IMG/VR virus record: IMGVR_UViG_3300025597_000012
Source: a virus
Reading direction: 5' to 3' (one strand)
Length of the DNA: 64,000 bases
Shown here: one piece after another, positions 49,004 through 61,474 of the stretch
Layout of the letters: each line of letters starts with the position of its first letter
Position numbering within the stretch: position 1 is the stretch's first letter
Notes under the pieces: model-generated
Database searches by the model: none
The model's input: only the letters and a program-made list of their open reading frames with translations
Told to the model about the DNA's origin: nothing
Translations under genes and position numbers: made by a program

Positions 49004-49078
49004 TTAGTTACACGTAGTGCATCCGCCACCAGATATTGTGGGCGTAAACCAAAAGCGTGTATGTTGAAACTGTTTCAT
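49004..49078 (-). CDS. Leader peptide L1 (24 aa) MKQFQHTRFWFTPTISGGGCTTCN
   Basis: Hand-translated, and below the ORF-track size cutoff. Codons 3-14 (Q F Q H T R F W F T P T) use only the 7 amino acids whose tRNAs follow, and they use all 7. It lies between the promoter and the terminator. Confidence 0.6.
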   Translation of the reverse strand: MKQFQHTRFWFTPTISGGGCTTCN

Positions 49079-49139
49079 ATTTAAAAAAGACCAATTCTAA
49101 GCGCGCTGTTCTATAGGAAGCGGAACTGGTATATTGATG

Positions 49140-49171
49140 CAAACTTACGAAGAATTTTTCAATCCTCCAAA
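49140..49171 (-). promoter_or_regulatory. Bacteroidota-type promoter of leader L1 / tRNA array 1
   Basis: Minus strand reads TTTG-N20-TAAGTTTG. Confidence 0.65.
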
Positions 49172-49204
49172 TTTATTTTGTTAAAATAACTAAAAAGAAT
49201 TAAT

Positions 49205-49741
49205 TTAACTTCCTAACTCATTGTCTAACAGACGTAAAGCTATTTTATCTGTACCAAAGGCAGCTAATCTATCCATAAGATTTTGAGTCTTTTCATGCTC
49301 TTCTATTTGTTCTTGTAAATATTTCATACCTAAAGTATAGAGCATAAAATCTGCTTCTTTTAAAGCATTAGCTGTCAATTCTTTACATTGCTTAGTTATA
49401 TCAATTTCATGTTGATAAGACTGTTTAATTATATCCGGTAAACCTGCAAATGTTTGTTTAGGTGAGTCTAGTTTTGGAGTTTCAGGTTGAACACCCATAG
49501 CTAAGAGATACTCTCTAGACCATTCTGCGTGTTTTAGCTCTTCCTCTGAATATTTTCTCCAAAGCTTTGCTGAACCTAGATAACCATTATTATTTAACCA
49601 CAGACTCATGGCTAAATATAGACGAGAAGAAAGCTCCTCTTGTTGGATTCTATTATTTAAAAATTGAACACATTTATTAGATAATAGTTCATTTTTACCT
49701 GTAAGGGAAATAGAATCTGTAGTTTTAAAATTAAGTTCCAT
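49205..49741 (-). CDS. Ferritin-like iron-storage protein
   Basis: IQQEELSSRLYLAMSLW...GSAKLWRKYSEEELKHAEW...SYQHEIDIT...LQEQIEEHE reproduces the spacing of ferroxidase-centre E/H residues in bacterial Ftn (compared from memory with E. coli FtnA). Confidence 0.7.
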   Translation of the reverse strand: MELNFKTTDSISLTGKNELLSNKCVQFLNNRIQQEELSSRLYLAMSLWLNNNGYLGSAKLWRKYSEEELKHAEWSREYLLAMGVQPETPKLDSPKQTFAGLPDIIKQSYQHEIDITKQCKELTANALKEADFMLYTLGMKYLQEQIEEHEKTQNLMDRLAAFGTDKIALRLLDNELGS

Positions 49742-49754
49742 TAAAAATTTTTCA

Positions 49755-49786
49755 CAAATATAACACTTTTTTGTGAAATTACCAAA
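49755..49786 (-). promoter_or_regulatory. Bacteroidota-type promoter of the ferritin gene
   Basis: Minus strand reads TTTG-N20-TATATTTG, 13 nt before the ATG. Confidence 0.65.
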
Positions 49787-49790
49787 TTTG

Positions 49791-49875
49791 TGAGAGTGGC
49801 TGGAGTCGAACCAGCACCCTTGCGGGACTACAGTTTTACAGACTGCTCCACCTAACCGATAGGTAGCTCACTCTC
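49791..49875 (-). tRNA. tRNA-Tyr(GUA), class II
   Basis: Anticodon loop CTGTAAA, variable arm CCC-GCAA-GGG and perfect acceptor GAGAGTG/CACTCTC. Confidence 0.8.
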
Positions 49876-49881
49876 AAATAG

Positions 49882-49967
49882 CGGAAACGAAAGGACTCGA
49901 ACCTTCAACCCAAATTAACGAGTAACGGTTTAGCAAACCGCTGCAGTACCATTATGCTTACGCTTCC
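49882..49967 (-). tRNA. tRNA-Ser(GCU), class II
   Basis: Anticodon loop TTGCTAA, long variable arm and T-arm GAAGG-TTCGAGT-CCTTT. Confidence 0.7.
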
Positions 49968-49972
49968 AATAG

Positions 49973-50056
49973 CGGTAGAGACAGGAATCGAACCTGTACG
50001 GCTATTACACCTTCATGGTTTTCAAGACCAATAAGCCCTCTCATTTGCGCTCTACC
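49973..50056 (-). tRNA. tRNA-Ser(UGA), class II
   Basis: Acceptor GGTAGAG/CTCTACC, anticodon loop CTTGAAA and long variable arm. The D-stem is weak. Confidence 0.6.
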
Positions 50057-50062
50057 AATATG

Positions 50063-50148
50063 TACTCCTGACTGGACTCGAACCAGCACGTCCATTTCTG
50101 GACAAGGGATTTTAAGTCCCTCGTGTCTACCAATTCCACCACAGGAGC
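50063..50148 (-). tRNA. tRNA-Leu(UAA), class II
   Basis: D-arm GTGGAATTGGTAGACAC, anticodon loop CTTAAAA and variable arm GTCC-AGAAAT-GGAC. Confidence 0.8.
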
Positions 50149-50153
50149 ATATG

Positions 50154-50237
50154 TAGCCTCGGAGAGACTCGAACTCTCACGTCCTTACGGACACTAGCTC
50201 CTAAGGCTAGCGCGTCTACCAATTCCGCCACAAGGCC
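50154..50237 (-). tRNA. tRNA-Leu(UAG), class II
   Basis: D-arm GCGGAATTGGTAGACGC, anticodon loop CTTAGGA and variable arm GTCC-GTAA-GGAC. Confidence 0.8.
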
Positions 50238-50240
50238 AAT

Positions 50241-50268
50241 AAAAAACCCCGACTATTGCTCGCCGGGG
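50241..50268 (-). terminator. Intrinsic terminator (attenuator) immediately 5' of tRNA array 2
   Basis: Minus strand reads CCCCGGC-GAGCAATA-GTCGGGG followed by TTTTTT. It ends 3 nt before tRNA-Leu. Confidence 0.7.
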
Positions 50269-50300
50269 TTTGAGGTTAAAGACCGTAGTCTAAAACAAGT

Positions 50301-50369
50301 TTACATAGTATTCCCAGCTCGATTTTTACTCGATAAACTGAGGGAATAATATGTGTTGTTTGTCTTCAT
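50301..50369 (-). CDS. Leader peptide L2 (22 aa) MKTNNTYYSLSLSSKNRAGNTM
   Basis: Hand-translated. Codons 7-14 are TAT TAT TCC CTC AGT TTA TCG AGT (Y Y S L S L S S). They use only Tyr/Ser/Leu and cover both Ser boxes and both Leu boxes, matching the downstream Leu, Leu, Ser, Ser, Tyr tRNAs. Confidence 0.6.
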   Translation of the reverse strand: MKTNNTYYSLSLSSKNRAGNTM

Positions 50370-50386
50370 TGCGTTTGAAAGGAATA

Positions 50387-50418
50387 CAAATATACGAAAA
50401 ATATTTGAAACTACCAAA
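50387..50418 (-). promoter_or_regulatory. Bacteroidota-type promoter of leader L2 / tRNA array 2
   Basis: Minus strand reads TTTG-N20-TATATTTG. Confidence 0.65.
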
Positions 50419-50424
50419 TTTTTA

Positions 50425-52368
50425 TTAATAAATATTTATTGCTAGTTTTTCTTTAAATAACTGCTTTTGGTAAAAGCGTTGTTTTAAAAATGAATATCTA
50501 TCGTAAGATTTGTTAATATCATATAATAAATTAGCTAATAAAGAGTTACCAACAGAAGCTATAAAAGTATTTATTTTTTGAAATAACGCTCTGAAATACA
50601 AGATATTAGTTTCTCTTGTAGGAAGGTGAATCTTTACTGATTTAGGTACTCTTACTGGCGGTGCTTCATTTACTGTTACCTGAACAGTATCTGTTCCTAC
50701 TGCACCATTGTTATCAGTAACTGTTAATGTAAATGTATATATTCCGGCTGCTAAACCGCTAACTATAGTAGTTGGTGAAGTAGGTGTTTCTATTAAATGT
50801 GCTGTAGGCCCACTTGTTTTTGTCCAATTATAAGAAGAAATAGTGCCATCTGTATCAGTCCCGCTACCATTTAAAGTTGCACTATTAGCAGGAAGAGTTA
50901 TAATTTTATCTTCTCCTGCATTTGCAACTGGGGCTATATTTTGTGCAGCAATTACAGTAATTATTACATTAGAACTGCCTGTTGCACCGTTATTATCAGT
51001 AACTGTAAGTCTAAAAGTATATATACCTGTAGATAAAGCACTTACAACCGTTGATGCGGAATTAGGTGATTGTATAGTAGCATTTGTAGGGCCACTAACT
51101 TGAGTCCAAGCATATGAAGAAATAGTCCCATCACTATCCGAACCGGTTCCGTTTAAAGTCACAGAACTTGCTGGTGCTTGTATAGATTGATTATTTCCTG
51201 CATTTGCAGTGGGTGGGGTATTTCCAACACAATTTGTTGTATATACTATTCCCGGTGTAACATCTATATCCGATGGAGAATTATCTGCTAATTTTGTATT
51301 TCCACAAATTATATTATCTGTGTTATATCTATTTGGATAATTTCCTCCATTATCATCAACACTAATATCAAAAGTTTGAAGAGAACCGCGAGAACCTGTT
51401 CTATTATTCTTGATAATAAATGTAGTATTCTCTACAGGAATTGTATTTCTTGGAGAAACAATAATAGCCCAAGGCCATACAAGACTATGGTCTAAACCAT
51501 CTCTTGTAGCTGAAGCAGGAAGAAATCCACTATGATTAATAGTATTATTTTCAATTCTTACATAAGTTCCTCCAAGTGAAGCAATACCCCAAACATAAGT
51601 ATAATCAATATTATTATCATGAATATACACTTTTGAATAAAGTCCTATATTAATACCGTTACCTTGACCATCACTAATTTCAAGACCTGCATTAGTAATT
51701 GTATTATTATAAATTTCACTTATACCAAGTTCAGCATCAGAAAGTTGAATAGCGGCACGACCTGTTTTATCAAATATGTTATGGTGAATTTTAAAATTAC
51801 CAAGGCGTGTCGGTTTATATTGTCCTTGAGTTGCAGGCACTCCATTACAAACAATAGGATTTCTATCTAACCAAAGAGCATTAGGGTCTGTAGAACCACA
51901 GTACATACCTTCGTATGTAATATTTCTTACTCTACAGTGATGAACTTCAATATTATTTATATACCAGTTAGGATATTGTAATGATGGGTCACAACTAGCT
52001 TCATTTTTAATCCAAAAACCAAAGGCTCCACCATCTATATCTATGTTAGAAACTTCTATATCAGAAACTCTTCCATGTAAAGAACATCCTGTTGAAACAA
52101 AACCATAGGTATCTGCTGAACCAGTTCCTAAAATTTTAATATGTGTACAATGTTCAATATCAAATGATACTTGAACTTGTCCGCCTTCATTTATAATGGT
52201 GATAGGCTGGTCAGCAGTACCATGTACTTCTGCCATATAAAAATAACTTCTAGGATTATCTGAAGCTCTAAGTACAATAGTATCTCCCGGATTAAAAATA
52301 CCCGGACTATTGATACCATTAAACATGTAACCGTTGTCTCCCTGTTTACCGGGATAATGTATTGCCAT
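50425..52368 (-). CDS. Right-handed beta-helix (polysaccharide lyase/depolymerase-like) protein with two PKD/Ig-like repeats
   Basis: Beta-helix repeat signatures NNTITNAG, IHDNNIDY and IENNTINHSG. Two repeats follow of the form ANAG.(D/N)..I..P...(V/A)TLNG(T/S)G(S/T)D(S/T)DGTISSY.WT.(V/T)SGPT. Confidence 0.55.
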   Translation of the reverse strand: MAIHYPGKQGDNGYMFNGINSPGIFNPGDTIVLRASDNPRSYFYMAEVHGTADQPITIINEGGQVQVSFDIEHCTHIKILGTGSADTYGFVSTGCSLHGRVSDIEVSNIDIDGGAFGFWIKNEASCDPSLQYPNWYINNIEVHHCRVRNITYEGMYCGSTDPNALWLDRNPIVCNGVPATQGQYKPTRLGNFKIHHNIFDKTGRAAIQLSDAELGISEIYNNTITNAGLEISDGQGNGINIGLYSKVYIHDNNIDYTYVWGIASLGGTYVRIENNTINHSGFLPASATRDGLDHSLVWPWAIIVSPRNTIPVENTTFIIKNNRTGSRGSLQTFDISVDDNGGNYPNRYNTDNIICGNTKLADNSPSDIDVTPGIVYTTNCVGNTPPTANAGNNQSIQAPASSVTLNGTGSDSDGTISSYAWTQVSGPTNATIQSPNSASTVVSALSTGIYTFRLTVTDNNGATGSSNVIITVIAAQNIAPVANAGEDKIITLPANSATLNGSGTDTDGTISSYNWTKTSGPTAHLIETPTSPTTIVSGLAAGIYTFTLTVTDNNGAVGTDTVQVTVNEAPPVRVPKSVKIHLPTRETNILYFRALFQKINTFIASVGNSLLANLLYDINKSYDRYSFLKQRFYQKQLFKEKLAINIY

Positions 52369-52378
52369 TTATTTTAAT

Positions 52379-52744
52379 TTAGGATATTACTTTAGTTGTT
52401 GAATCACTATAGGTTATAGTGACTATTTTTGTATCAAAATCTACTACTACATCATCTATTACTCTAGTAACAGTTACTTTTACACTATCTGAACTAGTTG
52501 CTCCTTTGTTATCAGTAGCAGTTAATTTAAACGTATAACTACCTAAAAGAAGTCCTGTAATTGTAGGAGTAAGGGTATTTTGTCCTGTAATTGTACAAGT
52601 ACCTCCGCTAGTTTTAGTCCAAACTACTGAAGAAATAGTACCATCAGGGTCTGTGGCAGTTCCAGTTAGAACTATTTGATTATTAGGAAGTTGTACTATT
52701 TTATCAACTCCTGCATTTACTATAGGTACTTTATTTATTGCCAT
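52379..52744 (-). CDS. PKD/Ig-like domain protein (start trimmed to MAINKVP)
   Basis: The same repeat type is present (VNAGVDKIVQLPNNQIVLTGTATDPDGTISSVVWTKTSG). The track start at 52780 lies inside the promoter, and the next ATG is 52744. Confidence 0.5.
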   Translation of the reverse strand: MAINKVPIVNAGVDKIVQLPNNQIVLTGTATDPDGTISSVVWTKTSGGTCTITGQNTLTPTITGLLLGSYTFKLTATDNKGATSSDSVKVTVTRVIDDVVVDFDTKIVTITYSDSTTKVIS

Positions 52745-52749
52745 ATTTA

Positions 52750-52781
52750 CAAATATACAAAAAAAAAACCATATTGCCAAA
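52750..52781 (-). promoter_or_regulatory. Bacteroidota-type promoter
   Basis: Minus strand reads TTTG-N20-TATATTTG, 5 nt before ATG 52744. Confidence 0.6.
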
Positions 52782-52784
52782 TTT

Positions 52785-53243
52785 CTAGTTTCGGCAAATA
52801 TGGTCTGCTGCTTTTGAAGCTATCATCTCGTCTGGTTTTACTAAAACATTATATCCTAGTGATTTAACCCAACCGGTAATAGCTGGAACAAGATTTGTTG
52901 ATTTTGTTATTTTTGCATTATTATAATCGAACTCAAGGGCTTCAAATTGGACTGGAACTTCTGCATTTATAGTTTGAGCTGTATCTATTGTTATTTCAGC
53001 TTCCTTCCATAAACGGCTAAAAGTATCCCTTATCCTAGGGATTCTTTGCTTTCTATATACAAAGTGTGCTCCCCTAAGTCCATATCTGAACACAACCGCC
53101 GTAGCGTAAACTGTATTCGACCCGTAATTCTGTGAGTCAGTAGCTATGTAAATCTTTAGGTTTGGATTCTGCTGTATTTGTTCTACAACGTGTTCCACTA
53201 TGTTTACTAACTTTCCTTCCTCTGTCCGAAAGTATTTGTCCAT
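52785..53243 (-). CDS. YkuK/DUF458-like RNase-H-fold protein
   Basis: The pattern LKIYIATDSQNYGSNTVYATAVVFRYGLRGAHFVYRKQRIPRIRDTFSRLWKEAEITI matches, from memory, the ..GTDSQ....tiv.H..g.Ga.f.Y.k signature of this family. Confidence 0.5.
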   Translation of the reverse strand: MDKYFRTEEGKLVNIVEHVVEQIQQNPNLKIYIATDSQNYGSNTVYATAVVFRYGLRGAHFVYRKQRIPRIRDTFSRLWKEAEITIDTAQTINAEVPVQFEALEFDYNNAKITKSTNLVPAITGWVKSLGYNVLVKPDEMIASKAADHICRN

Positions 53244-53255
53244 TGGTTTTATTTG

Positions 53256-53331
53256 TGGAATCTATGGGCATCGAACCCATCTGGTATTCTGCTTGCAAGG
53301 CAGACGACCACTCCAAGCAGTCCCAGACCCC
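53256..53331 (-). tRNA. tRNA-Ala(UGC)
   Basis: Acceptor GGGGTCT/AGATTCC includes the G3.U70 pair. Anticodon loop CTTGCAA and T-arm ATGGG-TTCGATG-CCCAT. Confidence 0.7.
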
Positions 53332-53456
53332 AAATGCGGGGGACTACGGCCCCCTAAAGATGTCTTATTAGGTTTCATCTCTGTCCCGGATTACGCTAGC
53401 GAGCTACCGGGGAAACCACGCTACATACTTTCGTAGAGGTTATGCGGGTTACACTG
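53332..53456 (-). other. Structured 125-nt spacer inside the tRNA array (not foldable as a tRNA)
   Basis: Nested stems GGTTTC/GAAACC and CCCGG/CCGGG, hairpin GGGGG-CCGTAGT-CCCCC and hairpin TAC-GAAA-GTA. No T-loop. Confidence 0.35.
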
Positions 53457-53529
53457 TGCTCACGCTAAGACTCGAACTTAGACTCTCTCGCGTATCAGGC
53501 GAGAGCTTTAACCATTAAGCTACATGAGC
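53457..53529 (-). tRNA. tRNA-Ile(GAU)
   Basis: Anticodon loop CTGATAC and T-arm CTAAG-TTCGAGT-CTTAG. Confidence 0.8.
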
Positions 53530-53581
53530 TGGAGAGGGACAGGTTATTTATACCTTCAAAGGACTCCCTCAGACCTCTTCG

Positions 53582-53654
53582 TACTCTCAAAGGGATTCGA
53601 ACCCTAAATTGCCTGTGTATAAGACAGGAGTTTTCACCGTTAAACTATGAGAGC
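53582..53654 (-). tRNA. tRNA-Ile(UAU)
   Basis: Anticodon loop CTTATAC and T-arm TAGGG-TTCGAAT-CCCTT. AUA codons are used three times in leader L3. Confidence 0.7.
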
Positions 53655-53801
53655 AAGTAAAGAGAGTGGGATTAGATTTCCGGGGATTGACCCAACCTGT
53701 GTCCTAATCTTATTTATCCTTGTACGGAGGCACACTCTCTTTGAATGGTCGGGCGGATTGCTTCTTTCAGCCTCAGACATTAATTACAATGTTGCCCGAT
53801 G
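53655..53801 (-). other. Structured 147-nt spacer inside the tRNA array (tRNA-like stems but no canonical cloverleaf)
   Basis: Acceptor-like pairs TCGGGC/GCCCGA and GAGAGTG/CACTCTC. Internal hairpins ACATT-GTAATTA-AATGT and GATTAG...CTAATC. No TTCGA T-loop. Confidence 0.3.
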
Positions 53802-53874
53802 CGGTCTATCACGGATTCGAACCGAGACTACCGCATAGACAGTGCGGCGTGTTCAACCATTACACTAATAGACC
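53802..53874 (-). tRNA. tRNA-Asp(GUC)
   Basis: Perfect acceptor GGTCTAT/ATAGACC and anticodon loop CTGTCTA. Confidence 0.8.
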
Positions 53875-54504
53875 ATAAACTTTATCCATGTTTGTTTTTC
53901 CGTTGCCATGAATAATCAACGGCTGAGTACCAGTTTTTTTATTAATCAGGATTCCATGTCTGTACTCAAAGTCATCTTCTGATTCAAAAGCTACAGATTG
54001 AAATAAATCACAGTTGGTATCCAACTTCATGTTATATTTATCTCTGTGCTTCAGATAAATTTCTGCTAAGTTAACTTGGTCATTATCACTATGTTTTATT
54101 GGATAATCCTCAAACATCTTGATAAATAAATCTACATTAACAAAGCATGCACCACCATTCAGATATTTCCAATCACTTTTTACTTTAGGATATTTTTCTG
54201 CCCAATCTGAATAAGGCCAGCATCCTTTTTCTGCGTTAAATATAATAGAATCAATATCATCTATTCTATCTATTGCTTGTTGCATTGTACCCAAAACTAT
54301 GATGTCATAAGTGTCTAGGATAAACAAGTGAGTACAATCTGTTTGCTTTGCATAGTTATAAGCGTTAACCATTTTACTACCATAAGCTTTATAGGTATCA
54401 GTCAGAATATCATAATTCCAATCAAACCTATCAAGTGAATCTTTAAACTGTTTAAACCCTTCGTGGTTTAAGTTGGTTGCTGTTCCTATTACGTTTACTT
54501 TCAT
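53860..54504 (-). CDS. GT-A glycosyltransferase resembling the collagen (LH3/PLOD-type) glycosyltransferase domain
   Basis: LFILDTYDIIV (DxD-like), FNAEKGCWPY, KYLNGGACFVNV and PLIIHGNGKT. From memory, these parallel VDSYDVI / FSAE.FCWP / FLNSGGFIG / VHGNGPTK of LH3. The 3' end overlaps tRNA-Asp by 15 nt. Confidence 0.5.
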   Translation of the reverse strand: MKVNVIGTATNLNHEGFKQFKDSLDRFDWNYDILTDTYKAYGSKMVNAYNYAKQTDCTHLFILDTYDIIVLGTMQQAIDRIDDIDSIIFNAEKGCWPYSDWAEKYPKVKSDWKYLNGGACFVNVDLFIKMFEDYPIKHSDNDQVNLAEIYLKHRDKYNMKLDTNCDLFQSVAFESEDDFEYRHGILINKKTGTQPLIIHGNGKTNMDKVYGLLV

Positions 54505-55289
54505 TTGAATGGATTATAATAAATAGATATTGTATTATTCTTATAACCCTGAACGGTTTCGTGATAGGTTTTCCATTGTTCAGAAGCATGGTTTTCTTTC
54601 CATTTCTGGTATGGTGTTCCTCCTGTATCTATGTGTTCTATCTCTATATGAGGTAAGAATACACTTTTAAACCCTGATAGTCTTGCTCTTATAGACATAA
54701 GGACATCATCAAATCCGTATAAACTAGGTTGGTATAAATAACCTATTTTATCAAGTAAAGCTGCTGAGTGCATAACACAAGTACCCATCACATGATTTAC
54801 TTGTTCTACTACTACCCATTTTTCACCGGGCTGGTGTTGAAGCATTAGTAATTCTGACTTATAAAAATCAGTTCTATTTGGTGATTCCCAACAATCTTTT
54901 CTTTTCAAGCCCACCTGTCCAATAGTATTGTCACGGCGAAAAACTTCTTCCATCTGTTCTATCCAACCTGATTGATGTATTACTACATCATCATCAATTT
55001 TAACACAATTCTCTCCGGGTTTTCTTTCTTTCCATGCTAAATTAATAGCTTCAGCAGTTCCTAGATTTTTATCATTCCAGATAACTTTATCAATTACAGA
55101 AAAAATTCCATTTGATTCAGAAAAATCTTCTATTATTTCTTTTGTTCTAGTAGTATAGGAATTTACAGAAAGTATTAATCTGTGTGAATCCCAGTCAACT
55201 GTTTTTTCTAAAGAATCTAATGTTTTATAAAGATATGTATCTTTATCATTATCTTCAGTACAATAAACAGCCATTGCTATTAAAGCCAT
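54501..55289 (-). CDS. Family-2-like glycosyltransferase (start trimmed to MALIAMAVYC)
   Basis: GT2-like N-terminal beta-strand, NLGTAEAINLAW and a KIDDDVVI DxD motif. The track start at 55331 lies inside tRNA-Glu. Confidence 0.55.
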   Translation of the reverse strand: MALIAMAVYCTEDNDKDTYLYKTLDSLEKTVDWDSHRLILSVNSYTTRTKEIIEDFSESNGIFSVIDKVIWNDKNLGTAEAINLAWKERKPGENCVKIDDDVVIHQSGWIEQMEEVFRRDNTIGQVGLKRKDCWESPNRTDFYKSELLMLQHQPGEKWVVVEQVNHVMGTCVMHSAALLDKIGYLYQPSLYGFDDVLMSIRARLSGFKSVFLPHIEIEHIDTGGTPYQKWKENHASEQWKTYHETVQGYKNNTISIYYNPFK

Positions 55290-55304
55290 TGGTTTTATTT
55301 TTAG

Positions 55305-55379
55305 TATTCTGGAAGGGACTCGAACCCTCACTGACCACAGTGAAAGTGTGGTGACTTATTCCAATTTGTCAACCAGAAC
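55305..55379 (-). tRNA. tRNA-Glu(UUC)
   Basis: Anticodon loop CTTTCAC and T-arm GAGGG-TTCGAGT-CCCTT. Confidence 0.8.
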
Positions 55380-55380
55380 A

Positions 55381-55452
55381 TTTGCAGTTTAGTCGGCCTC
55401 TACTATACCTAGGCCGCAGAGAGTATAGACTCGTATTCCATCTACTGCAAAA
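55381..55452 (-). other. 72-nt three-way-junction element between tRNA-Gly and tRNA-Glu
   Basis: Closing stem TTTGCAG(tt)TAG/CTACTGCAAA and hairpins CGGCC-13nt-GGCCG and GAGT-ATAG-ACTC. Its size is tRNA-like, but there is no T-loop and no anticodon arm. Confidence 0.3.
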
Positions 55453-55460
55453 AGGAATTG

Positions 55461-55531
55461 AGCGAGTAGTGGGAGTCAAACCCACGCCTTAACCTTGGAA
55501 GGGTCATATGCTATCGTAACACTTCACTCGC
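55461..55531 (-). tRNA. tRNA-Gly(UCC)
   Basis: Anticodon loop CTTCCAA and T-arm GTGGG-TTTGACT-CCCAC. The 5' 21 nt overlap the HNH ORF's 3' end. Confidence 0.7.
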
Positions 55532-55942
55532 TAATGCTTCTTTATAATGTAAATCTCTATGACAATTAGCACATAAAACTTTACATTTATTTATTTCTTC
55601 TTGTAATAGTTTTTTAGAACATTTTGTTACAAGTTGTGATACTTCTGAATCTTTTTCATTTGGATTTTTATGATGAAAATCTAAAACCCAATATCTACTA
55701 TCTCCACATGATTCACAAGATAAAGTACTTTTGTATTCAGAAAACCATTTTCTAAAGTCTTGTTTATACTTTACTGCTTTTTGAATATACTTTTCTTTAT
55801 TTTTTTCGTAATGCTTTTTTCTATATTCTTTTTGACAAGCTTTACAATTACTTTGATAAAGTAAATTTTTTCTATCTTTTCTTGTAGCAAACTCCGTTAA
55901 AGGAAGTTCTTTTTTACAAATTGTACATTTTTTAATTTTCAT
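55511..55942 (-). CDS. HNH endonuclease (start trimmed to MKIKKCT)
   Basis: CxxC pairs plus DFHHKNP...CANCHRDLH. The track start at 55978 lies inside the promoter. Confidence 0.65.
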   Translation of the reverse strand: MKIKKCTICKKELPLTEFATRKDRKNLLYQSNCKACQKEYRKKHYEKNKEKYIQKAVKYKQDFRKWFSEYKSTLSCESCGDSRYWVLDFHHKNPNEKDSEVSQLVTKCSKKLLQEEINKCKVLCANCHRDLHYKEALASEVLR

Positions 55943-55947
55943 ATATG

Positions 55948-55979
55948 TAAATATACGAAAAATAATTGATACTTCCAAA
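55948..55979 (-). promoter_or_regulatory. Bacteroidota-type promoter (imperfect -7 box TATATTTA)
   Basis: Minus strand reads TTTG-N20-TATATTTA, 5 nt before ATG 55942. Confidence 0.45.
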
Positions 55980-56001
55980 TTTTATTTTATTTGGAAGGAT
56001 G

Positions 56002-56073
56002 TTGCGTAGGCTGGATTCGAACCAGCGACCTAATGGTTATGAGCCATCCGAGCTACCTCTGCTCTACCACGCA
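56002..56073 (-). tRNA. tRNA-Met(CAU) (elongator or Ile2-type; not initiator-like)
   Basis: Anticodon loop CTCATAA and T-arm GCTGG-TTCGAAT-CCAGC. There is no GGG/CCC anticodon stem. Confidence 0.75.
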
Positions 56074-56183
56074 ATTTATCCCCGGACTAGTGCGCCTTCC
56101 TCCGGGGGTGTTATTGCTTATCTTCTTCGTCAATAACTAAACCCTTTTGGGTCGGCCAACGGATACTATCCGCAGGGGGGGGG
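56074..56183 (-). other. Hairpin-dense 110-nt spacer upstream of tRNA-Met with a C9 (plus-strand G9) homopolymer
   Basis: Stems CGGA/TCCG, ACCC/GGGT, TTATTG/CAATAA and CCCCGGA/TCCGGGG. The G9 run is at about 56175-56183. Confidence 0.3.
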
Positions 56184-56396
56184 CTATCTTAATATCTTTA
56201 AACCGCTGGTAGCAGTCCAAAGAACATAATTGTTTTTCTTTACTTCACCCATTACTATTTTCTTTTCATAATTAGTAACTCGTGAAGTAGGAAGGGTAAC
56301 CAACCAGTGAATGAATTTTTCTCGTTCACCTTTGTATTTTTTAATACTGGCTATCCTACGGTATTCCTTACCGTCTTTTATGACTGTATCATTCAT
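56184..56396 (-). CDS. Hypothetical protein (70 aa)
   Basis: ORF starting 2 nt after the tRNA-Asn 3' end. Confidence 0.35.
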   Translation of the reverse strand: MNDTVIKDGKEYRRIASIKKYKGEREKFIHWLVTLPTSRVTNYEKKIVMGEVKKNNYVLWTATSGLKILR

Positions 56397-56397
56397 G

Positions 56398-56472
56398 CGG
56401 GACAGGATGGACTCGAACCAACGACCTTAGAGTTAACAGCTCTCTGCTCTCGACCAACTGAGCTACAGTCCC
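56398..56472 (-). tRNA. tRNA-Asn(GUU)
   Basis: Anticodon loop CTGTTAA. One mismatch each in the acceptor and T stems. Confidence 0.65.
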
Positions 56473-56513
56473 CTTTTGTATTTTTAACTCCACGCAGAAT
56501 ACTAACTGACCTG

Positions 56514-56587
56514 AAGCCCTGAAAGGAGTCGAACCTTCATCTAATAGTTTAGAAAACTATGACATTCATCCATTATGCTACAGGGCC
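56514..56587 (-). tRNA. tRNA-Arg(UCU)
   Basis: Anticodon loop TTTCTAA and T-arm GAAGG-TTCGACT-CCTTT. Confidence 0.8.
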
Positions 56588-56590
56588 ATG

Positions 56591-56665
56591 TACATCTGGA
56601 ATGAGTCGAACATTCGGTCTCCGTCTTGTAAGGGCGGTGCTTTCAACCAACTAAGCTACAGATGC
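56591..56665 (-). tRNA. tRNA-Val(UAC)
   Basis: Anticodon loop CTTACAA and T-arm GAATG-TTCGACT-CATTC. One C.A mismatch in the anticodon stem. Confidence 0.7.
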
Positions 56666-56720
56666 AAATATAATACTTTATTTAAAGCTTACCAAATAAA
56701 GTATGTTAAAGTTTTGTTAG

Positions 56721-56791
56721 AGGACAAGATAGGAATCGAACCTACGCTGGAGGTGTTGCAGACCTCTGCCTTACCGCTTGGCTACTTGTCC
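56721..56791 (-). tRNA. tRNA-Cys(GCA)
   Basis: Perfect acceptor GGACAAG/CTTGTCC and anticodon loop CTGCAAC. Confidence 0.8.
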
Positions 56792-56794
56792 ATG

Positions 56795-56868
56795 TGCTAC
56801 CGAAGGGACTCGAACCCATAACCTCCTGATTAAAAGTCAGAAGCTCTACACTATTGAGCTACGATAGC
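56795..56868 (-). tRNA. tRNA-Lys(UUU)
   Basis: Anticodon loop CTTTTAA and D-arm GCTC-AATAGTGTA-GAGC. Confidence 0.75.
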
Positions 56869-56872
56869 AAAT

Positions 56873-56897
56873 AAAAAACCCTCCTTTAAGGGGAGGG
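56873..56897 (-). terminator. Intrinsic terminator (attenuator) immediately 5' of tRNA-Lys
   Basis: Minus strand reads CCCTCC-CCTTAAA-GGAGGG followed by TTTTTT. It ends 4 nt before tRNA-Lys. Confidence 0.7.
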
Positions 56898-56920
56898 CTT
56901 CAGTAATATTCGTGGTTAAA

Positions 56921-57013
56921 TTAAACCAGTTCTATATCAGACATAGCTCTCCTGATGATGGTATCTCTACCCACCTCTTTACAAATCATATTTATGGCTA
57001 TGTTCTTTCTCAT
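56921..57013 (-). CDS. Leader peptide L3 (30 aa) MRKNIAINMICKEVGRDTIIRRAMSDIELV
   Basis: Hand-translated. The first 17 residues use exactly the 11 amino acids (K C V R N M G E D I A) of the 12 tRNAs between here and the next leader. All Arg codons are AGA/AGG, and Ile is encoded by ATA three times plus ATT/ATC. Confidence 0.55.
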   Translation of the reverse strand: MRKNIAINMICKEVGRDTIIRRAMSDIELV

Positions 57014-57030
57014 TTTAAATTTAAGTTATG

Positions 57031-57062
57031 CAAACTTACGACAAATATTTGGATTTTCCAAA
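57031..57062 (-). promoter_or_regulatory. Bacteroidota-type promoter of leader L3
   Basis: Minus strand reads TTTG-N20-TAAGTTTG. Confidence 0.65.
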
Positions 57063-57080
57063 TTTATTAATAGAAAATAA

Positions 57081-57281
57081 TTAAATCTTTTGTGAATATC
57101 TTTTCCAGCCTGTAACTTTATTGATAGCGTCTACTAGTTTATTGTAATCTTTACGCCAGTTTTTATAAGCTTTGGAGCGTTTATCTGATGGCTCCTTAGC
57201 GGCCTGTTCAGCTAAAAGTTCATCAGCATGACCTACGTTTACAATAATTATTTCTTTATCGTCAATCATTACTCTTTCCAT
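57081..57281 (-). CDS. Hypothetical protein (66 aa)
   Basis: ORF coupled to its upstream neighbour. Confidence 0.35.
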   Translation of the reverse strand: MERVMIDDKEIIIVNVGHADELLAEQAAKEPSDKRSKAYKNWRKDYNKLVDAINKVTGWKRYSQKI

Positions 57282-57607
57282 TACTTTATTCTTTTAATAA
57301 GTTCACCACTAAGCTCCTCATAAATTCTTGAGAATTTTTCATAACCCATTCTTATTAAGAACATTCCGTAGTTTAAAAATATCTTTACGTGCTCATCATC
57401 TTCTTTACCATAAGCTACAATATCATTTAAATTGACTACTAATGGTTTATATGTAGTTTCTGAATCATCTTCATCTTCTTCATCTTCTTCATATTTATCA
57501 CCTTTAATCAGACGTTTAGCTATTCTTGCAGCTTTGTCTTCTTCTGATTCATTGTTCTTGTCTTTAAAGACTCTTACTTTTACAAAAAATTCTACGCGTT
57601 GTGCCAT
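57281..57607 (-). CDS. Hypothetical acidic protein (108 aa)
   Basis: ORF with an EDEEDEDD tract. Confidence 0.35.
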   Translation of the reverse strand: MAQRVEFFVKVRVFKDKNNESEEDKAARIAKRLIKGDKYEEDEEDEDDSETTYKPLVVNLNDIVAYGKEDDEHVKIFLNYGMFLIRMGYEKFSRIYEELSGELIKRIK

Positions 57608-57620
57608 GTTTTTTATTTTG

Positions 57621-57736
57621 CAGTATGGGAAGGATTCGAACCTTCATAGTTTAATGTATCGTTCACTAGGAATACTTAATACTTATAAACTGCCACCGAG
57701 ACTAGGTGGTGCGTCTGCCAGTTCCGCCACCGTACT
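57621..57736 (-). tRNA. Aberrant 116-nt tRNA-like gene (identity unassigned)
   Basis: Acceptor AGTACGG/CCATACT (one mismatch), a Leu-type D-arm GCGGAACTGGCAGACGC and a canonical T-arm GAAGG-TTCGAAT-CCTTC. The anticodon loop TAGTCTC has A at position 33, and about 46 nt are inserted in the variable region. Its own promoter ends 7 nt upstream. Confidence 0.4.
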
Positions 57737-57743
57737 ATAAGTA

Positions 57744-57774
57744 CAAAGATAGTGAAAAATTTTGAGATTACAAA
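57744..57774 (-). promoter_or_regulatory. Bacteroidota-type promoter of the tRNA-like gene
   Basis: Minus strand reads TTTG-N19-TATCTTTG. Confidence 0.6.
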
Positions 57775-57776
57775 AT

Positions 57777-58544
57777 TTATAATCGACTTCCTAGAAAAAT
57801 TAATCCTCCAAATTCCAGAGCTTTTAACAAAATATTAGGTTTTTTAACAGGAGAATAGATTACTGAATTCTGTCCCATTACGTTAATAAATTGTGAACTA
57901 TGCAATACCTGAACCTGAAATTTAGGTTTAGAGAAAGGATGGAAAAATCCTCTTTTAAGTTTTACTACTCTAATATATTGAGTATCAGCTATTGAGATAG
58001 TTCCAAGATGAAATCCTGTCTTTGTGATTACTCCTGAAAGTCTTATACCTTCCTGATATTTATCTTCAACGCTATCTAAAGTTACAGCTTTAGGAACCTT
58101 AATCATATTGTTCAGGACGTAGTTATATAAAGAGGCTGTGTCTTTATATTTACTTAATTCCTTTCTAACACTGTCTATGGTAGCTGTGTCCTTATAAGGA
58201 ATGAAGGTATTATCTATATGAGCTGAGAGTTGTGCTTCGTAGTAGAATGTGACATCCTTAATTTTCTTCTCATACTTTTTAGTCAGATTAAACTTCTGGT
58301 CAGTAAGGTCTTTAATCTCAGCTTGATTATCTGTGATAATAGAAGTCTGAGTATAAACGGTTTGTTTTAACTCATTTTTAATACTGTCTAATTTTTGGTT
58401 AGCTAAGGTCAAAGAATCCAATGCCACGTTCTGACGAGCTACTTGGGATTCGTAATTACACTTGTTAAGAAAAAGACAAAGAAATAATCCAGCTATTACT
58501 GAGAAATAAATGTAGTCTTTGAAATTAATTTTAGGGAATGTCAT
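57777..58544 (-). CDS. Membrane-anchored / lipoprotein-like protein (255 aa)
   Basis: N-terminal hydrophobic segment ending ...LFLNKC. Confidence 0.4.
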   Translation of the reverse strand: MTFPKINFKDYIYFSVIAGLFLCLFLNKCNYESQVARQNVALDSLTLANQKLDSIKNELKQTVYTQTSIITDNQAEIKDLTDQKFNLTKKYEKKIKDVTFYYEAQLSAHIDNTFIPYKDTATIDSVRKELSKYKDTASLYNYVLNNMIKVPKAVTLDSVEDKYQEGIRLSGVITKTGFHLGTISIADTQYIRVVKLKRGFFHPFSKPKFQVQVLHSSQFINVMGQNSVIYSPVKKPNILLKALEFGGLIFLGSRL

Positions 58545-58558
58545 GTTTTTGATTTGTT

Positions 58559-58591
58559 CAAATATAAGGCATTTGGATACCCAAATCCAAA
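58559..58591 (-). promoter_or_regulatory. Bacteroidota-type promoter
   Basis: Minus strand reads TTTG-N21-TATATTTG, 14 nt before ATG 58544. Confidence 0.55.
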
Positions 58592-58604
58592 TCTTTTAAG
58601 TTAA

Positions 58605-59090
58605 TTAAATGTTAAGGAGTCTACAGATATAGCGGAAGGCAGATTTATCTTTACATTCTCCTTCAAAAAGTATTTTGTCACTATTATGTATTTTAAAAAT
58701 ACTTAGATATGTAGTGTCATCTTCATCTTCTTTTTGTCCATTGAAAAAATGAATAATTCTATTTTCTTTCTCCCAAAGGTATTCTCTCCAATGAATACAT
58801 CTCCATCCCTCAGCTATTATATCTTCCTTGGTAAGATAGGGTACTCTAATAAGTCCTCTTTCCAAATTGGAGGCTAAAGTTGGGCTTCCGTCTGATAAGA
58901 ATGTTTCTTTAACCCAGTTGTCCTCAAGTACCCAGTCTGCTACAGGTTGGGGATAATCCATTTTAATTAGCTGTTCCTTAGGTATATATCTAAGGAAATT
59001 TTGTTCATACTCGTACCCGTAAATAAAGTCTTCCAGTTTAGGAGTGAAATACTTACTGTCCATTGTCTTTGGTTTTATGTGAGCCGTCAC
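58605..59090 (-). CDS. Hypothetical protein (161 aa; start may be the internal MDSKYF at 59063)
   Basis: ORF. The first ATG overlaps the upstream gene by 38 nt. Confidence 0.4.
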   Translation of the reverse strand: MTAHIKPKTMDSKYFTPKLEDFIYGYEYEQNFLRYIPKEQLIKMDYPQPVADWVLEDNWVKETFLSDGSPTLASNLERGLIRVPYLTKEDIIAEGWRCIHWREYLWEKENRIIHFFNGQKEDEDDTTYLSIFKIHNSDKILFEGECKDKSAFRYICRLLNI

Positions 59091-59271
59091 AGAAGATACC
59101 GTCTTTACTTTTCCCGCAGCGGCACAGGGCTATTGTTCCGTTTTTTGAAGTATTGAAGATTCCTTGGATACCTTGATTAGGTTGTTTATCCTTAGGGTGA
59201 AGTTCAATTTCGTAGTCGGTGCATGCTATAAGAGCAGGGCCACCTTCGAGCAGTTTAATCTTTAATGCCAT
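59053..59271 (-). CDS. CDGSH-type iron-sulfur domain protein
   Basis: CRCGKSKDGIFCDGSH fits C-X-C-X2-S-X3-(P)-X-C-D-G-S-H, with Ile at the usual Pro position. Confidence 0.65.
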   Translation of the reverse strand: MALKIKLLEGGPALIACTDYEIELHPKDKQPNQGIQGIFNTSKNGTIALCRCGKSKDGIFCDGSHKTKDNGQ

Positions 59272-59295
59272 AATATATTGGTTTTTTTAGGGGTT

Positions 59296-59544
59296 TTACT
59301 GTTTTGATGTCTTCATTGATTGATTATAAGAAGGGCCAAAAAAGGAGAAGCTTGGCTTAATGTAGGAGGAGCCTTTAACGGCGTTGCCTTCCTTCTCGAT
59401 AAACTCAACAGCTTGTCTGGCCTCTTCGTTATCCCTAGAGTCAACTACAGGGATATTAAAAGTCTCACCTTTGGTATTGGTTACCTTCAGTTGGTAGGAG
59501 CGTTCTCCGGGCGTTGTAATCTTTTCGATTTTCGTCTTATTCAT
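59296..59544 (-). CDS. Hypothetical protein (82 aa)
   Basis: ORF. Confidence 0.35.
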   Translation of the reverse strand: MNKTKIEKITTPGERSYQLKVTNTKGETFNIPVVDSRDNEEARQAVEFIEKEGNAVKGSSYIKPSFSFFGPSYNQSMKTSKQ

Positions 59545-59878
59545 TTTCAGGCGTTTTAACGGGGTTAATTGAATCTGGTGTCTCGGTCTGGGGTTCTTGG
59601 GTAGTGTCGGTTAAATCGACCGTAATAGCTTCAGGGATGGTCATAGAGGCTAACTGTTCAGGAGTAATCCTAGATAAAGGGAAAACTCCATTAGGAGTAT
59701 GAACGAATATATGGTTCTCTAGGATGGCATCCTCTATATGTAATCTGCGGCATACCTGTACATAATCTATAAAGGCTTTATAGTCGGAAGTGTACTGGAT
59801 TGTATAGGTCTTGTCAATTACACCACCTGCCTGCCCAACACTATAAGCAAATCCGGGTATTAGTTTGTCTGTAATCAT
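59537..59878 (-). CDS. Hypothetical protein (start trimmed to MITDKL; possibly leaderless)
   Basis: The -7 box ends at 59884, so the ATG at 59878 is about where transcription should start. Confidence 0.35.
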   Translation of the reverse strand: MITDKLIPGFAYSVGQAGGVIDKTYTIQYTSDYKAFIDYVQVCRRLHIEDAILENHIFVHTPNGVFPLSRITPEQLASMTIPEAITVDLTDTTQEPQTETPDSINPVKTPENE

Positions 59879-59883
59879 AACCA

Positions 59884-59915
59884 CAAAGGTAGTGTTTTTC
59901 TCTCACTTAACCAAA
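59884..59915 (-). promoter_or_regulatory. Bacteroidota-type promoter, first of the leftward transcription units
   Basis: Minus strand reads TTTG-N20-TACCTTTG. Confidence 0.6.
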
Positions 59916-61435
59916 TTTAATTTGTTAAAATAGGCCCCCGGTATTTAACATTTGAAAAAGATACCCCCGTACTTACCTAAAGGGGAAATAAGGGGAGGCT
60001 CTCACTCTTAGGAACCCGGTTATAACTCCTCCCCCGCGTTCCCTTAGTCCGTGACCTATCCCCCTGCTTAAAGCCGTAACGAATTGAGAACCAGCGACTT
60101 ACAACTATTTTCAAAGTTTTTGCCCTGAATAGTTGGAAACGGTCAGCAGGATGACCTACTTTTGTCTGGTAATCCTACCACACAGCCCAAAGGGGCAAAG
60201 CAAAGTAAGGCAAGCCGCAAGGCCATCCCTGAACTGTTCGTGGCGTGATTACCCTGCATATAAACTATAGGCAAACTTTGCCTACAGTCCAAAGTATGGA
60301 ATGTCGGAATAACTGATGTTTATTGGTGTCTATGTAGCATCCAACTCAGGTGTTAGTCTACATAGGATTAAACAGTAGGCCAGTTGACCAGTCGGGGTAT
60401 TTTTATACCTAACTGCAAACCATTGGTTAATCCAAAAAACCCGTCCTTTACGCGGGCTTGCTAAAAACAGGCTCTTAAATTGGACTCCCTAAGGGGATAT
60501 GCTTATACGATTGTGTCTGCTCATGCAGGTACATCGGTCAAGGGCAAAGTGTTACCGTCATCAGAATACAGGAACAAACCTGTATACGGTAGGGGTATAT
60601 CCCAACGCAGCCGGCTTGGTACGGACTTGGCAAGTCCAAACCATGACAATACTCGGTCAAACAACCCTGCTGTCCTAAATGGGCATCATATAGGCAGGGA
60701 CTGCGAAGCAACGTAGTGGACAACTCCCTGCTTAGGGTAGGGGTATATAGTGTCCGGTGCGTAGTGTAAAGGTGGCTATTGTTACCTGAAAGCGTAACGA
60801 AAGGAATAAACTGCAAAGTTTTTGAGGCTCGTCATGTACTAACGGGCTATTTTGCGTGTAGAATAATATTCAACCACGTTTCTGAATAGTACAAAGTAAG
60901 GTAAGCTACCTGCGAAAACGGTCTAAACGGGCTAATTGCACCCGCAAGGATTAGACTAAACTCACAATTATTTCTATAATTGAGTATAAAGCGGAAGCAC
61001 TCTTGTCATTTAGTGACAGGACTAATCTGCAAGTAAGGTATGAGGGTGGCCGCAAGGTTGCACCCTCATGTCGGGGTCAAATCCGGCGGAAGGCTCATAA
61101 CTTTCCGCCTTACCACATTTGGACACGGACGGATAACACAATAGGGGATGGGGCACGTCAAAGCACTACTAATGTAGGCGAGCACGGCACTCATTCCCTT
61201 GTTGTGTTAAAGTTGTGTTACATTTTACGTTATGTAAAGCCAGCAGTGTGCCGCGAGGTTCTTTTGCTGGCTCAATGTACTGAAAGAGAACCGTTTGCGG
61301 GTTGTTCCGTATGGGTCGGTATGTCCATATCTTTTGCTCGTAAATTGTTGATTTTCAATGTTTCAAAGGCTCTCATTAGTTATTACTGGGTCTTTATGGG
61401 GGGTGTGTCGGTACTGTCCTGCACACCCCTTTTCT
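59916..61435 (+). ncRNA. Candidate large structured RNA locus (one or several RNAs), identity unknown
   Basis: About 1.5 kb with no credible ORF and visibly higher GC. More than 20 local hairpins are present. Several are capped by GNRA loops only when read on the plus strand: gcc-GCAA-ggc at ~60212, cc-GCAA-gg at ~60943, GAGGGTG..cc-GCAA-gg..CACCCTC at ~61042-61067, and GCCAGCA..cc-GCGA-gg..TGCTGGC at ~61239-61271. The region ends in an intrinsic terminator. Confidence 0.35.
61398..61435 (+). terminator. Intrinsic terminator (plus strand)
   Basis: GGGGTGTG (61400-61407) pairs with CACACCCC (61422-61429), followed by TTTTCT. Confidence 0.65.
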
Positions 61436-61474
61436 ATTAGGATTATCGTGCCTCTTATGGCATAATGATACAAT

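Follow-up and report, generated by a model that had tools for sequence, protein, structure and literature searches.

The window analysed here, the whole 64,000-nucleotide stretch of IMG/VR virus record IMGVR_UViG_3300025597_000012, belongs, as judged from its sequence, to a phage distantly related to the crAss-like phages: its portal, major head protein and large terminase match crAss-type PHROG families. A junction of 1.59 kb without open reading frames (ORFs), at positions 59885–61474, separates a late gene module on the minus strand from an early module on the plus strand, and several short motifs recur within it. An initial annotation had noticed these motifs and proposed, among other options, that they were repeated RNA structural modules, protein-binding sites, or promoter elements for a non-host-type polymerase. 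The evidence collected below gives a close to even chance that they are the recurrent modules of a structured non-coding RNA of ~1.4 kb, made early from the plus strand. The points in favour of the RNA option are motifs that are strand-specific, discrete domains that fold on the plus strand, a terminator at the 3′ end and natural variants that repair or keep hairpin pairs.

The recurrences themselves are exact. GGTAGGGGTATAT is found at 60588–60600 and 60736–60748 and nowhere else in the 64-kb window, and AAGTAAGGYAWG at 60203, 60894 and 61031 only, so that the two and three copies first reported are all there. Both copies of GGTAGGGGTATAT indeed stand at the foot of a hairpin: ATACAGG (60566–60572) pairs with CCTGTAT (60579–60585), followed by AC and copy 1, and GCAGGGA (60694–60700) pairs with TCCCTGC (60725–60731), followed by TTAG and copy 2. 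Copies 1 and 3 of the 8-mer AAGTAAGG are followed by GCAA-capped hairpins, as had been described, and the same CC-GCAA-GG mini-hairpin, CCGCAAGG (60215, 60942, and 61050), trails every copy, with start-to-start distances of 12, 48, and 19 nt for copies 1, 2, and 3, respectively. CCGCAAGG is also the sole 8-mer besides AAGTAAGG with three copies in the junction. The related copies reported further downstream are present as well, GTAAGGTAGG at 63385–63394 (previously placed at ~63396) and GGTAGGG at 63506.

One element of the first description has to be abandoned. The two GGTAGGGGTATAT copies, whose starts lie 148 nt apart, had been taken to suggest a tandemly duplicated module of ~147 nt, but the similarity reaches 22 nt and no further (CCTGNNNNNGGTAGGGGTATAT, 86% identity). 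Outside this core, the flanks align like shuffled sequence (z-score (z) of -0.1 for the 60 nt upstream and -1.1 for the 80 nt downstream), and the z of 2.4 obtained in a global alignment of the two supposed 148-nt units is due to the core. As the flanks are unrelated, the copies do not stem from a 148-nt tandem duplication; GGTAGGGGTATAT is a short element that has been maintained at the base of two distinct hairpins.

To evaluate chance, 2000 dinucleotide shuffles of 59885–61474 were used. An exact direct repeat of at least 13 nt arose in 49 of them (p ~0.025). AAGTAAGG has three copies where 0.07 are expected, a count reached in none of the 2000 shuffles, in a test that is post hoc. When mismatches were allowed and the whole window was considered, the tests of the GGTAGGGGTATAT and AAGTAAGG motifs were not significant. 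Enrichment over shuffled sequence and conservation in related genomes, on which the initial annotation had made its proposal depend, were both looked at: the motifs are enriched, and they recur in relatives as described below. Other repeats lie in or near the junction: (T/A)AACGGGCTA(T/A)TT occurs twice (60840–60849 and 60925–60939), with population variants in both copies (60841 and 60927), CAAAGTTTTTG occurs twice (60112–60122 and 60814–60824), and a boxA-like GCTCTTAAATTG family has three copies (60471, 61336, and 62096).

Coding capacity can be ruled out for the junction. Neither the standard code nor a reassignment of TGA, TAG, or TAA yields a long ORF, which also disposes of stop-codon recoding as the cause of the ORF-free stretch. 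The largest reading frame (145 aa) matched only itself among 1.84 billion protein representatives and holds three single-nucleotide polymorphisms, all of them on first or second codon positions. At the level of folding, every well-defined domain is more stable on the plus strand, with z-scores down to -7.4, and the minimum free energy (MFE) of the whole region is -507 for the plus strand vs -455 for the minus strand. Discrete domains, each favoured on the plus strand, make up the 3′ half of the region.

The left edge of the junction is marked by a host-type (Bacteroidota-like) promoter on the minus strand, TTTG-N20-TAccTTTG (59884..59915), directly upstream of the first late ORF (59537–59884); the same element is found in Leptolyngbya phage Lbo-JY46, the nearest annotated genome and the clade's sole isolate. 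On the plus strand comes the block CACTCTTAGGAACCCGGTTATAACTCCTCCCCCGC (60003–60037), common to Lbo-JY46 and to two IMG/VR contigs introduced below (L028 and L074), and presumed to signal where the early transcription unit starts; at this block, GGGGAGG (59992–59998) is able to pair with CCTCCCC (60028–60034). Module 1 (60184–60224, plus strand) is made of a hairpin GCCC-AAAG-GGGC, AAAGCAAAGTAAGG (copy 1, 60203–60210), and a hairpin GCC-GCAA-GGC. It is followed, at 60553–60600 of the same strand, by an extended hairpin (TACCGT/ACGGTA around ATACAGG/CCTGTAT) that ends in GGTAGGGGTATAT copy 1, of which GGTA is paired and GTATAT unpaired in the predicted fold. The fold of 60545–60612 has an energy of -19.5 kcal/mol (z -3.0, 2 of 200 shuffles as good), while the minus strand reaches a z of only -1.4. 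The plus-strand element at 60694–60748 can adopt either the hairpin GCAGGGA/TCCCTGC or the alternative CCCTGCT/GGTAGGG before GGTAGGGGTATAT copy 2 (z -1.6). Further along, 60894–60949 holds AAGTAAGG copy 2 (60894–60901) and the second CC-GCAA-GG mini-hairpin (60942–60949), again on the plus strand, with a local fold around the motif no better than shuffles (z 0.0).

The strongest plus-strand structures follow. At 61033–61113 a three-hairpin junction, the first hairpin of which is GCAA-capped (CCGCAAGG, 61050–61057), is closed by GUAAGGU of AAGTAAGG copy 3 (61031–61038) pairing with GCCUUAC (61107–61113). Its MFE and centroid structures are identical (-40.2 kcal/mol, z -4.0, 0 of 200 shuffles as good), compared to -33.5 kcal/mol on the minus strand. 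A long hairpin with ~21 pairs in its main stem occupies 61134–61209 (-40.4 kcal/mol, z -7.4; minus strand -28.1 kcal/mol, z -4.0), and a hairpin with an inner CC-GCGA-GG tetraloop stem occupies 61238–61272 (-18.9 kcal/mol, z -3.2; minus strand -15.0). The series ends with an intrinsic-terminator-like hairpin, GGGGUGUG...CACACCCC, followed by UUUUCU (61400–61435; -21.9 kcal/mol, z -3.2; minus strand -18.9), which stops 40 nt before the ATG of the first early ORF at 61475.

Natural variants point in the same direction. Among the 9–10 near-identical contigs covering 54.0–64.0 kb, all variable sites (60234, 60239, 60841, 60927, 61151, 61249, 61303, 63909/63917, and 63988) lie in two non-coding stretches, the junction and 63352–63963, or at the edge of the second (63988). 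Three of the five substitutions in the junction repair or keep predicted pairs, and one lies in a loop. G61151A turns a G·U pair of the 61134–61209 hairpin into A-U, and A60841G turns an A·C opposition of the predicted fold into G-C. T61249G, in the 61238–61272 hairpin, replaces U·U by G·U, a pair that exists only in plus-strand RNA, and moves the energy from -18.9 to -21.6 kcal/mol. The ~7.8 kb of ORFs within 54000–64000 contain no variable site in these contigs; the non-coding stretches seem more variable than even synonymous sites, in a sample of small numbers and linked haplotypes.

Known RNA families did not account for the region. Searched with the 4227 models of Rfam 15, among them GOLLD, ROOL, group I/II introns, riboswitches, 6S, tmRNA, and ribozymes, the segment 59.7–64 kb yielded nothing beyond chance-level microRNA and tobacco mosaic virus (TMV) matches, with E allowed up to 10. 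At gathering thresholds the whole window returned tRNAs only, and the junctions of the relatives gave nothing meaningful at E up to 5.

After Lbo-JY46, whose terminase is 49% identical, the nearest genomes are Cellulophaga phages and crAss-like phages, with no more than 31% terminase identity, and a blastn search of the region against GenBank phages gave no match. The ORFs neighbouring the junction (115 and 195 aa) are orphans (ORFans) in a database of 5.8 billion proteins and in IMG/VR, which ruled out synteny as a route to close relatives, and the contigs retrieved by exact-protein look-ups were all ≥99.7% identical to the window. Several anaerobic-digester metagenomes hold the phage almost clonally, at this same level of identity (≥99.7%); the samples in question are the JGI series 3300010348, 3300009716, 3300009768, 3300025691, and 3300025678, together with ERZ724020, ERZ778038, ERZ27257446, and SRR5007461. 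Equivalent junctions were gathered by motif-based and terminase-based searches. These are the junction of Lbo-JY46, whose GenBank record is cut exactly there; that of L028 (IMG/VR contig 3300043403_000051, 83 kb; L022, L028, and L061 are one contig); the 3′ part of that of L041, a Logan contig; and that of L074 (IMG/VR contig 3300005563_000030, 125 kb).

While the ORFs flanking the window junction have no homologues and those of the relatives are unrelated, the motif families recur. Over five junction sequences from four phages, the early strand has 9 copies of AAGTAAG (0.6 expected), 12 of AGTAAG, and 5 of GGTAGGG (0.16 expected), and the opposite strand 0, 0, and 1, respectively. The Lbo-like junctions can be aligned among themselves over 0.9 kb. 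The window and these junctions also share the order and strand of their elements: the block GGA(A)CCCRGTTATAACTNCTCCCCCG comes first, a hairpin-AAAGTAAGG-GCAA-hairpin module lies ~150–200 nt further on, and then come GGTAGG copies, further AAGTAAG copies, and a hairpin with a U run shortly before the first early ORF. The layout of module 1 is found in L028 at the same distance (~150–200 nt) from the start block (GCC-GAAA-GGC, CAAAGTAAGG, GCCGCAAGC), and its counterpart in Lbo-JY46 is weaker (AAGGGGCAAAAAGTAGCAA). The equivalent of the terminator is the highly conserved GCACCCTTTGTTGGGGCTTTTGTTCT, located before the first early ORF in Lbo-JY46, L028, and L041. In addition, a relative with a 44% identical terminase (L040) carries TAGGGGTATA and GGTAGG in its junction.

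L074 differs from these phages. Its junction is only 100–220 nt long and has zero motif copies, and its start block is located ~55 nt before the first early ORF, which makes the block look like the start signal of the early unit. From this comparison, the motif-bearing 0.7–1.4 kb would be an accessory insert between the start block and the first gene. Where Lbo-JY46 has ATGGTAGGGAGGT, L028 has TGGCACGAAGGTA, so the repeated element can change as a set within the lineage; TGGCACGAAGGTA is an exact 13-nt repeat found twice in L028 (~7425 and ~7687 in the reverse complement of locus bases 1–10000). More distant terminase relatives (L030, L031, L033, and L037) have junctions without the motifs, and in the closest ones (L025–L027, 59–63% identity), the 10-kb flank does not reach the junction. 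DNA pattern scans with the two-copy 13-mer, the 22-nt core, the start block, and AAGTAAGG...CCGCAAG returned chance or coding matches only, apart from the L022/L028/L061 contig and L074; the false matches included methyltransferase, FtsA-like, and Mfd-like coding sequences and one unrelated phage gene family.

These observations suggest the following scheme. An RNA spanning ~60.02–61.44 kb of the plus strand would be the first product of the early transcription unit: transcription would begin at or near the conserved block at 60003–60037, pass along a chain of independently folding domains, and end at the intrinsic terminator at 61400–61435, ahead of the first early ORF. In this RNA, AAGUAAGG would have a CC-GCAA-GG tetraloop hairpin 12–48 nt downstream in all its copies, the best-defined copy forming one strand of the closing helix of the three-hairpin junction, and GGUAGGGGUAUAU would sit at the 3′ foot of two otherwise unrelated hairpins with its 5′ half paired and its 3′ half exposed. 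The exposed, purine-rich GUA(A/G)GG beside stable hairpins could then act as repeated docking sites, and the other AAGUAAGG copies, together with the exposed half of GGUAGGGGUAUAU, may bind a protein, for which the RNA would be a decoy or scaffold early in infection, or GNRA tetraloops through tertiary contacts. In the predicted ensemble, AAGTAAGG copy 3 is clearly exposed (97.7th percentile) and the other four motif copies fall between the 42nd and 66th percentiles. While the anatomy, the strand bias, the terminator, the recurrence in relatives, and the lack of coding capacity are observed, we infer the transcription of this RNA, its stability, and any binding partner; it would be an accessory and fast-evolving early long non-coding RNA (lncRNA), like those of phage phi14:2 (see below), and most likely a previously undescribed candidate in a rare phage clade.

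A bolder extension of this scheme is conceivable but rather unlikely: the region would represent a new class of structured RNAs of 0.7–1.4 kb, placed between the conserved early start signal and the first early gene, made first on infection by this crAss-related clade, and evolving faster than the genes. Through repeated GUA(A/G)GG docking motifs beside GNRA hairpins, such an RNA would serve as host-factor decoy or scaffold, for instance as an RNA-based anti-defence or take-over device.

Several results speak against the RNA interpretation. At the 1.4-kb scale the z-scores of the folds do not discriminate, the coding segment 61475–62895 having a z of -7.9 vs -5.7 for the non-coding region; as this coding control scored lower still, the case for an RNA gene does not draw on large-scale z-scores. 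Neither the junction of Lbo-JY46 (z -1.6) nor that of L028 (z -1.9) shows significant structure, and the local folds around AAGTAAGG copies 1 and 2 are unconvincing (z ~0). The covariation terms of RNAalifold were positive (+0.8 and +1.55) and thus unsupportive, with only three alignable and divergent relatives, and a profile hidden Markov model comparison of the window with the Lbo-like junctions was not significant (E = 1.1). Finally, the replacement of GGTAGG by TGGCACGAAGGTA in L028 fits co-evolution with a DNA-binding or an RNA-binding protein equally well.

The main rival to the lncRNA interpretation is that the motifs are recognition sites in DNA for a non-host transcription machinery, that is, promoter or recognition elements for a phage-supplied RNA polymerase or specificity factor reading the early plus-strand module, with the copies stacked at the entering genome end like the tandem early promoters of T7 or N4. 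We consider it unlikely, although part of the evidence suits it. The host-type promoter TTTG-N18-22-TAnnTTTG (TTTG at -33 and TAnnTTTG at -7) is matched 14 times in the window, where 3.25 matches are expected; the minus strand accounts for 12, and the plus strand lacks the pattern from 59.9 to 69.9 kb. Nine promoters of this type lie on the late strand within the 12 kb adjoining the junction vs none in ~10 kb of early strand, and Lbo-JY46 displays the same asymmetry, so the early module is not read from host-type promoters. Moreover, the motifs are strand-specific and oriented with early transcription, GTAGGGTG stands between the terminator and the first early ORF in the Lbo-like phages, and the lineage-specific replacement of the repeat in L028 resembles promoter-polymerase co-evolution. 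In Lbo-JY46, the first ~7.4 kb or so of the early strand hold six copies of TGGTAGGK (~0.14 expected; record L017, 124773 and 124806; L018, 2739, 3643, 6045, and 6393), the last four being additional sites in the first 6.4 kb of its early module; some of these sites fall within annotated coding sequences. In phi14:2, a crAss-like Cellulophaga phage, the early genes are transcribed by a virion RNA polymerase, but no common motif was found upstream of the early transcripts (Drobysheva et al., bioRxiv 10.1101/2020.03.07.982082).

The polymerase option of the initial annotation thus keeps the lack of host-type promoters on the early strand as an argument and loses ground on other points. The polymerase search covered the 64-kb window of a ~118-kb genome (contig ERZ724020 NODE_75). 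In it, DFDxD is missing from all frames, the giant ORFs match nothing in PDB, and no T7-like or two-barrel polymerase was detected. The ORF of 3959 aa (1979–13858, minus strand), which matches phrog_9880, resembles, over ~200 aa, only the zincin-like 'RNAP-associated' virion protein of crAssphages. In L074 the motifs are missing although the start block and early genes are there, so early transcription does not need them to start. Both copies of GGTAGGGGTATAT are located 740–890 nt upstream of the first ORF, with the terminator in between, and none of the motifs occurs in the intergenic gaps of the remaining early module (64–69.9 kb). Promoters would also leave the plus-strand RNA signatures unexplained. 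TAGGATTA was tried as an early promoter word and rejected: it is frequent along the plus strand of the entire late region and is therefore probably codon-driven. Regarding the late promoters, those of the window (48254–59915) and of L017 (13445–20141) are often extended to TTTGGTAGTTT...TATNTTTG, and TGGTAG is common to this extended -33 element and to the early-strand GGTAGG motif. Bacteroidota-form promoters are also present in Lbo-JY46, which is recorded as a phage of a cyanobacterium (Leptolyngbya); either its host reads promoters of this form or the host assignment deserves checking.

A region of no specific function, that is, a poorly constrained spacer or decayed gene remnant in which the recurring words reflect chance or composition, is less likely again than DNA recognition sites. 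It would agree with all microdiversity lying in non-coding stretches, as expected under relaxed constraint, with the modest p-value of the exact 13-mer repeat, with the non-significant mismatch-tolerant tests, and with the number of 8-mers shared by the window and Lbo-JY46, which hardly exceeds shuffles (34 vs 22.5 ± 4.9, and 41 on the opposite strand). The strict strand asymmetry of AAGTAAG and AGTAAG in four phages does not suit it, nor do the threefold pairing of AAGTAAGG with CCGCAAGG, the conserved position of module 1 in L028, domain z-scores of -4 to -7.4, a GC content kept at 45% in a genome of 32%, and variants that repair pairs. It is improbable, too, that the region acts in cis as a 5′ leader, either as an attenuation or antitermination switch or as a processing platform for read-through into the early ORFs. 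The terminator just before the first early ORF with no recognisable promoter between it and the ATG, the alternative pairing of TCCCTGC near GGTAGGGGTATAT copy 2 with GCAGGGA or GGTAGGG, and the boxA-like GCTCTTAAATTG repeats would all fit such a leader; its 1.4 kb far exceeds known leaders, its size varies from 0 to 1.4 kb among relatives sharing the start block, and no riboswitch or leader family of Rfam matches it.

Very improbable, and also behind the main rival, is the view that the motifs are DNA sites of replication or packaging, such as origin iterons, terminase (pac) sites, or terminal-repeat elements at a physical genome end. The junction does combine the strand switch with the minimum of the cumulative GC skew, A/T-run palindromes in AT-rich sequence adjoin it in the relatives, and the Lbo-JY46 record is cut there. 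Moreover, 6 of the 8 contig ends of independent metagenome assemblies fall within 61051–61411, and in one sample a 96-kb contig ends at 61051 and a 3.5-kb contig begins at 61262. These contig ends may stem from a physical end of the genome, from anomalous coverage, or from heterogeneity at this place, and the Lbo record begins exactly at an ATG, which makes its ends look arbitrary. The motifs, however, have two to three copies in a single orientation with irregular spacings (148, 691, and 137 nt) and no regular helical phasing, where iterons would be at least three regular, helically phased direct repeats of ~17–22 bp beside an AT-rich stretch; here a 13-mer occurs twice and an 8–12-mer three times. 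L074 lacks the motifs though it equally needs an origin and a packaging site, and the plus-strand folding advantage and the U·U to G·U variant would have no meaning for sites in double-stranded DNA.

As for the surroundings, the minus strand of the window carries all the large genes and the 21 tRNA genes, at ~32% GC, and the junction, bounded by the last minus-strand gene and the first plus-strand gene, is contained in a GC island of 41–48% over ~5 kb (59000–64000), after which GC is again ~32% (beyond 64.0 kb). The tRNA genes (48485–56868, minus strand) form several arrays with small ORFs between them, syntenic with those of Lbo-JY46. Inside the island, five tightly packed plus-strand ORFs (61475–63351) are ORFans and precede the second non-coding stretch (63352–63963, plus strand), which holds the copies of GTAAGGTAGG (63385) and GGTAGGG mentioned above. 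Two long, terminator-like plus-strand stems followed by T runs are predicted in it, one at 63562–63647 (63555–63665, z -2.7) and a second at 63763–63915, enclosing 109 nt; a fold z of -5.2 was also obtained for this second non-coding stretch. A tRNA T-arm-like sequence, GTAGTGGTTCAACTCCACTA, at 63936–63955 was not called by ARAGORN or Rfam. Past the window end, contigs L001 and L010 show ~45 differences in ~250 nt from the window extension at 64738–64982 and are otherwise identical to it; this patch resembles a small replacement by recombination within the early module.

The lncRNA interpretation can be set against several known systems. GOLLD (RF01998) and ROOL (RF03087) are multi-domain structured RNAs of several hundred nucleotides, often carried by phages and often near tRNA genes, whose biochemical function is, to our knowledge, not known. 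The region resembles them by its 21 tRNA genes, 3–11 kb away; it differs in matching neither model and in having no architecture supported by covariation. The sponge RNAs of the CsrB/RsmZ type present a repeated short motif (ANGGA consensus) beside hairpins, as the region does with its purine-rich GUA(A/G)GG, partly exposed beside stable hairpins. However, the motif is not ANGGA, only 5–7 copies are present in 1.4–2 kb, and two of the five window copies are largely paired in the predicted ensemble. The promoters of the N4 virion RNA polymerase have a 5–7-bp stem and a 3-nt loop of conserved sequence. The sequence of a hairpin, a few nucleotides, and a conserved element, repeated at the early genome end, recalls them, but the loops of the window are of 6 and 24 nt, the stems are unrelated in sequence, and no polymerase match was obtained in the window.

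The closest parallel is phi14:2, the only relative that has been studied experimentally. Two long intergenic regions near the start of its early region (g004-g005 and g005-g006) are transcribed early and above most genes; their function was left undetermined in that study (Drobysheva et al., bioRxiv 10.1101/2020.03.07.982082), and the role of these early lncRNAs has been open since 2020. The two phages share neither sequence nor motifs (blastn with word size 7 and motif scans of phi14:2 1–9000), and the phi14:2 region is not enriched in GC (29% vs 28%), unlike that of the window (45% vs 32%). A virion RNA polymerase was demonstrated and transcription measured in phi14:2, whereas in the window no polymerase was found and transcription is only deduced. 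In both, however, an ORF-free region of similar size (in phi14:2 an annotated gap of ~1.7 kb, 2905–4601) lies at the start of the early module and is oriented with early transcription: in the window, 1.59 kb of non-coding sequence occupies the late/early strand switch, with motifs, domains, and terminator on the early strand. The lack of host-type early promoters in the window also fits the virion polymerase of phi14:2 and its lack of a common early motif, and for this clade it points to an early transcription mechanism of a different kind. The locus would be a second, unrelated example of an early lncRNA at an equivalent genomic position, and, should its RNA turn out to be a decoy or scaffold, the take-over or anti-defence strategies of phages would gain a layer of large RNA. 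Its defined domains and its repeated motifs lend themselves to mutation and to use as pull-down bait, and it provides a natural series of 0-, 0.7-, and 1.4-kb versions behind one conserved start block.

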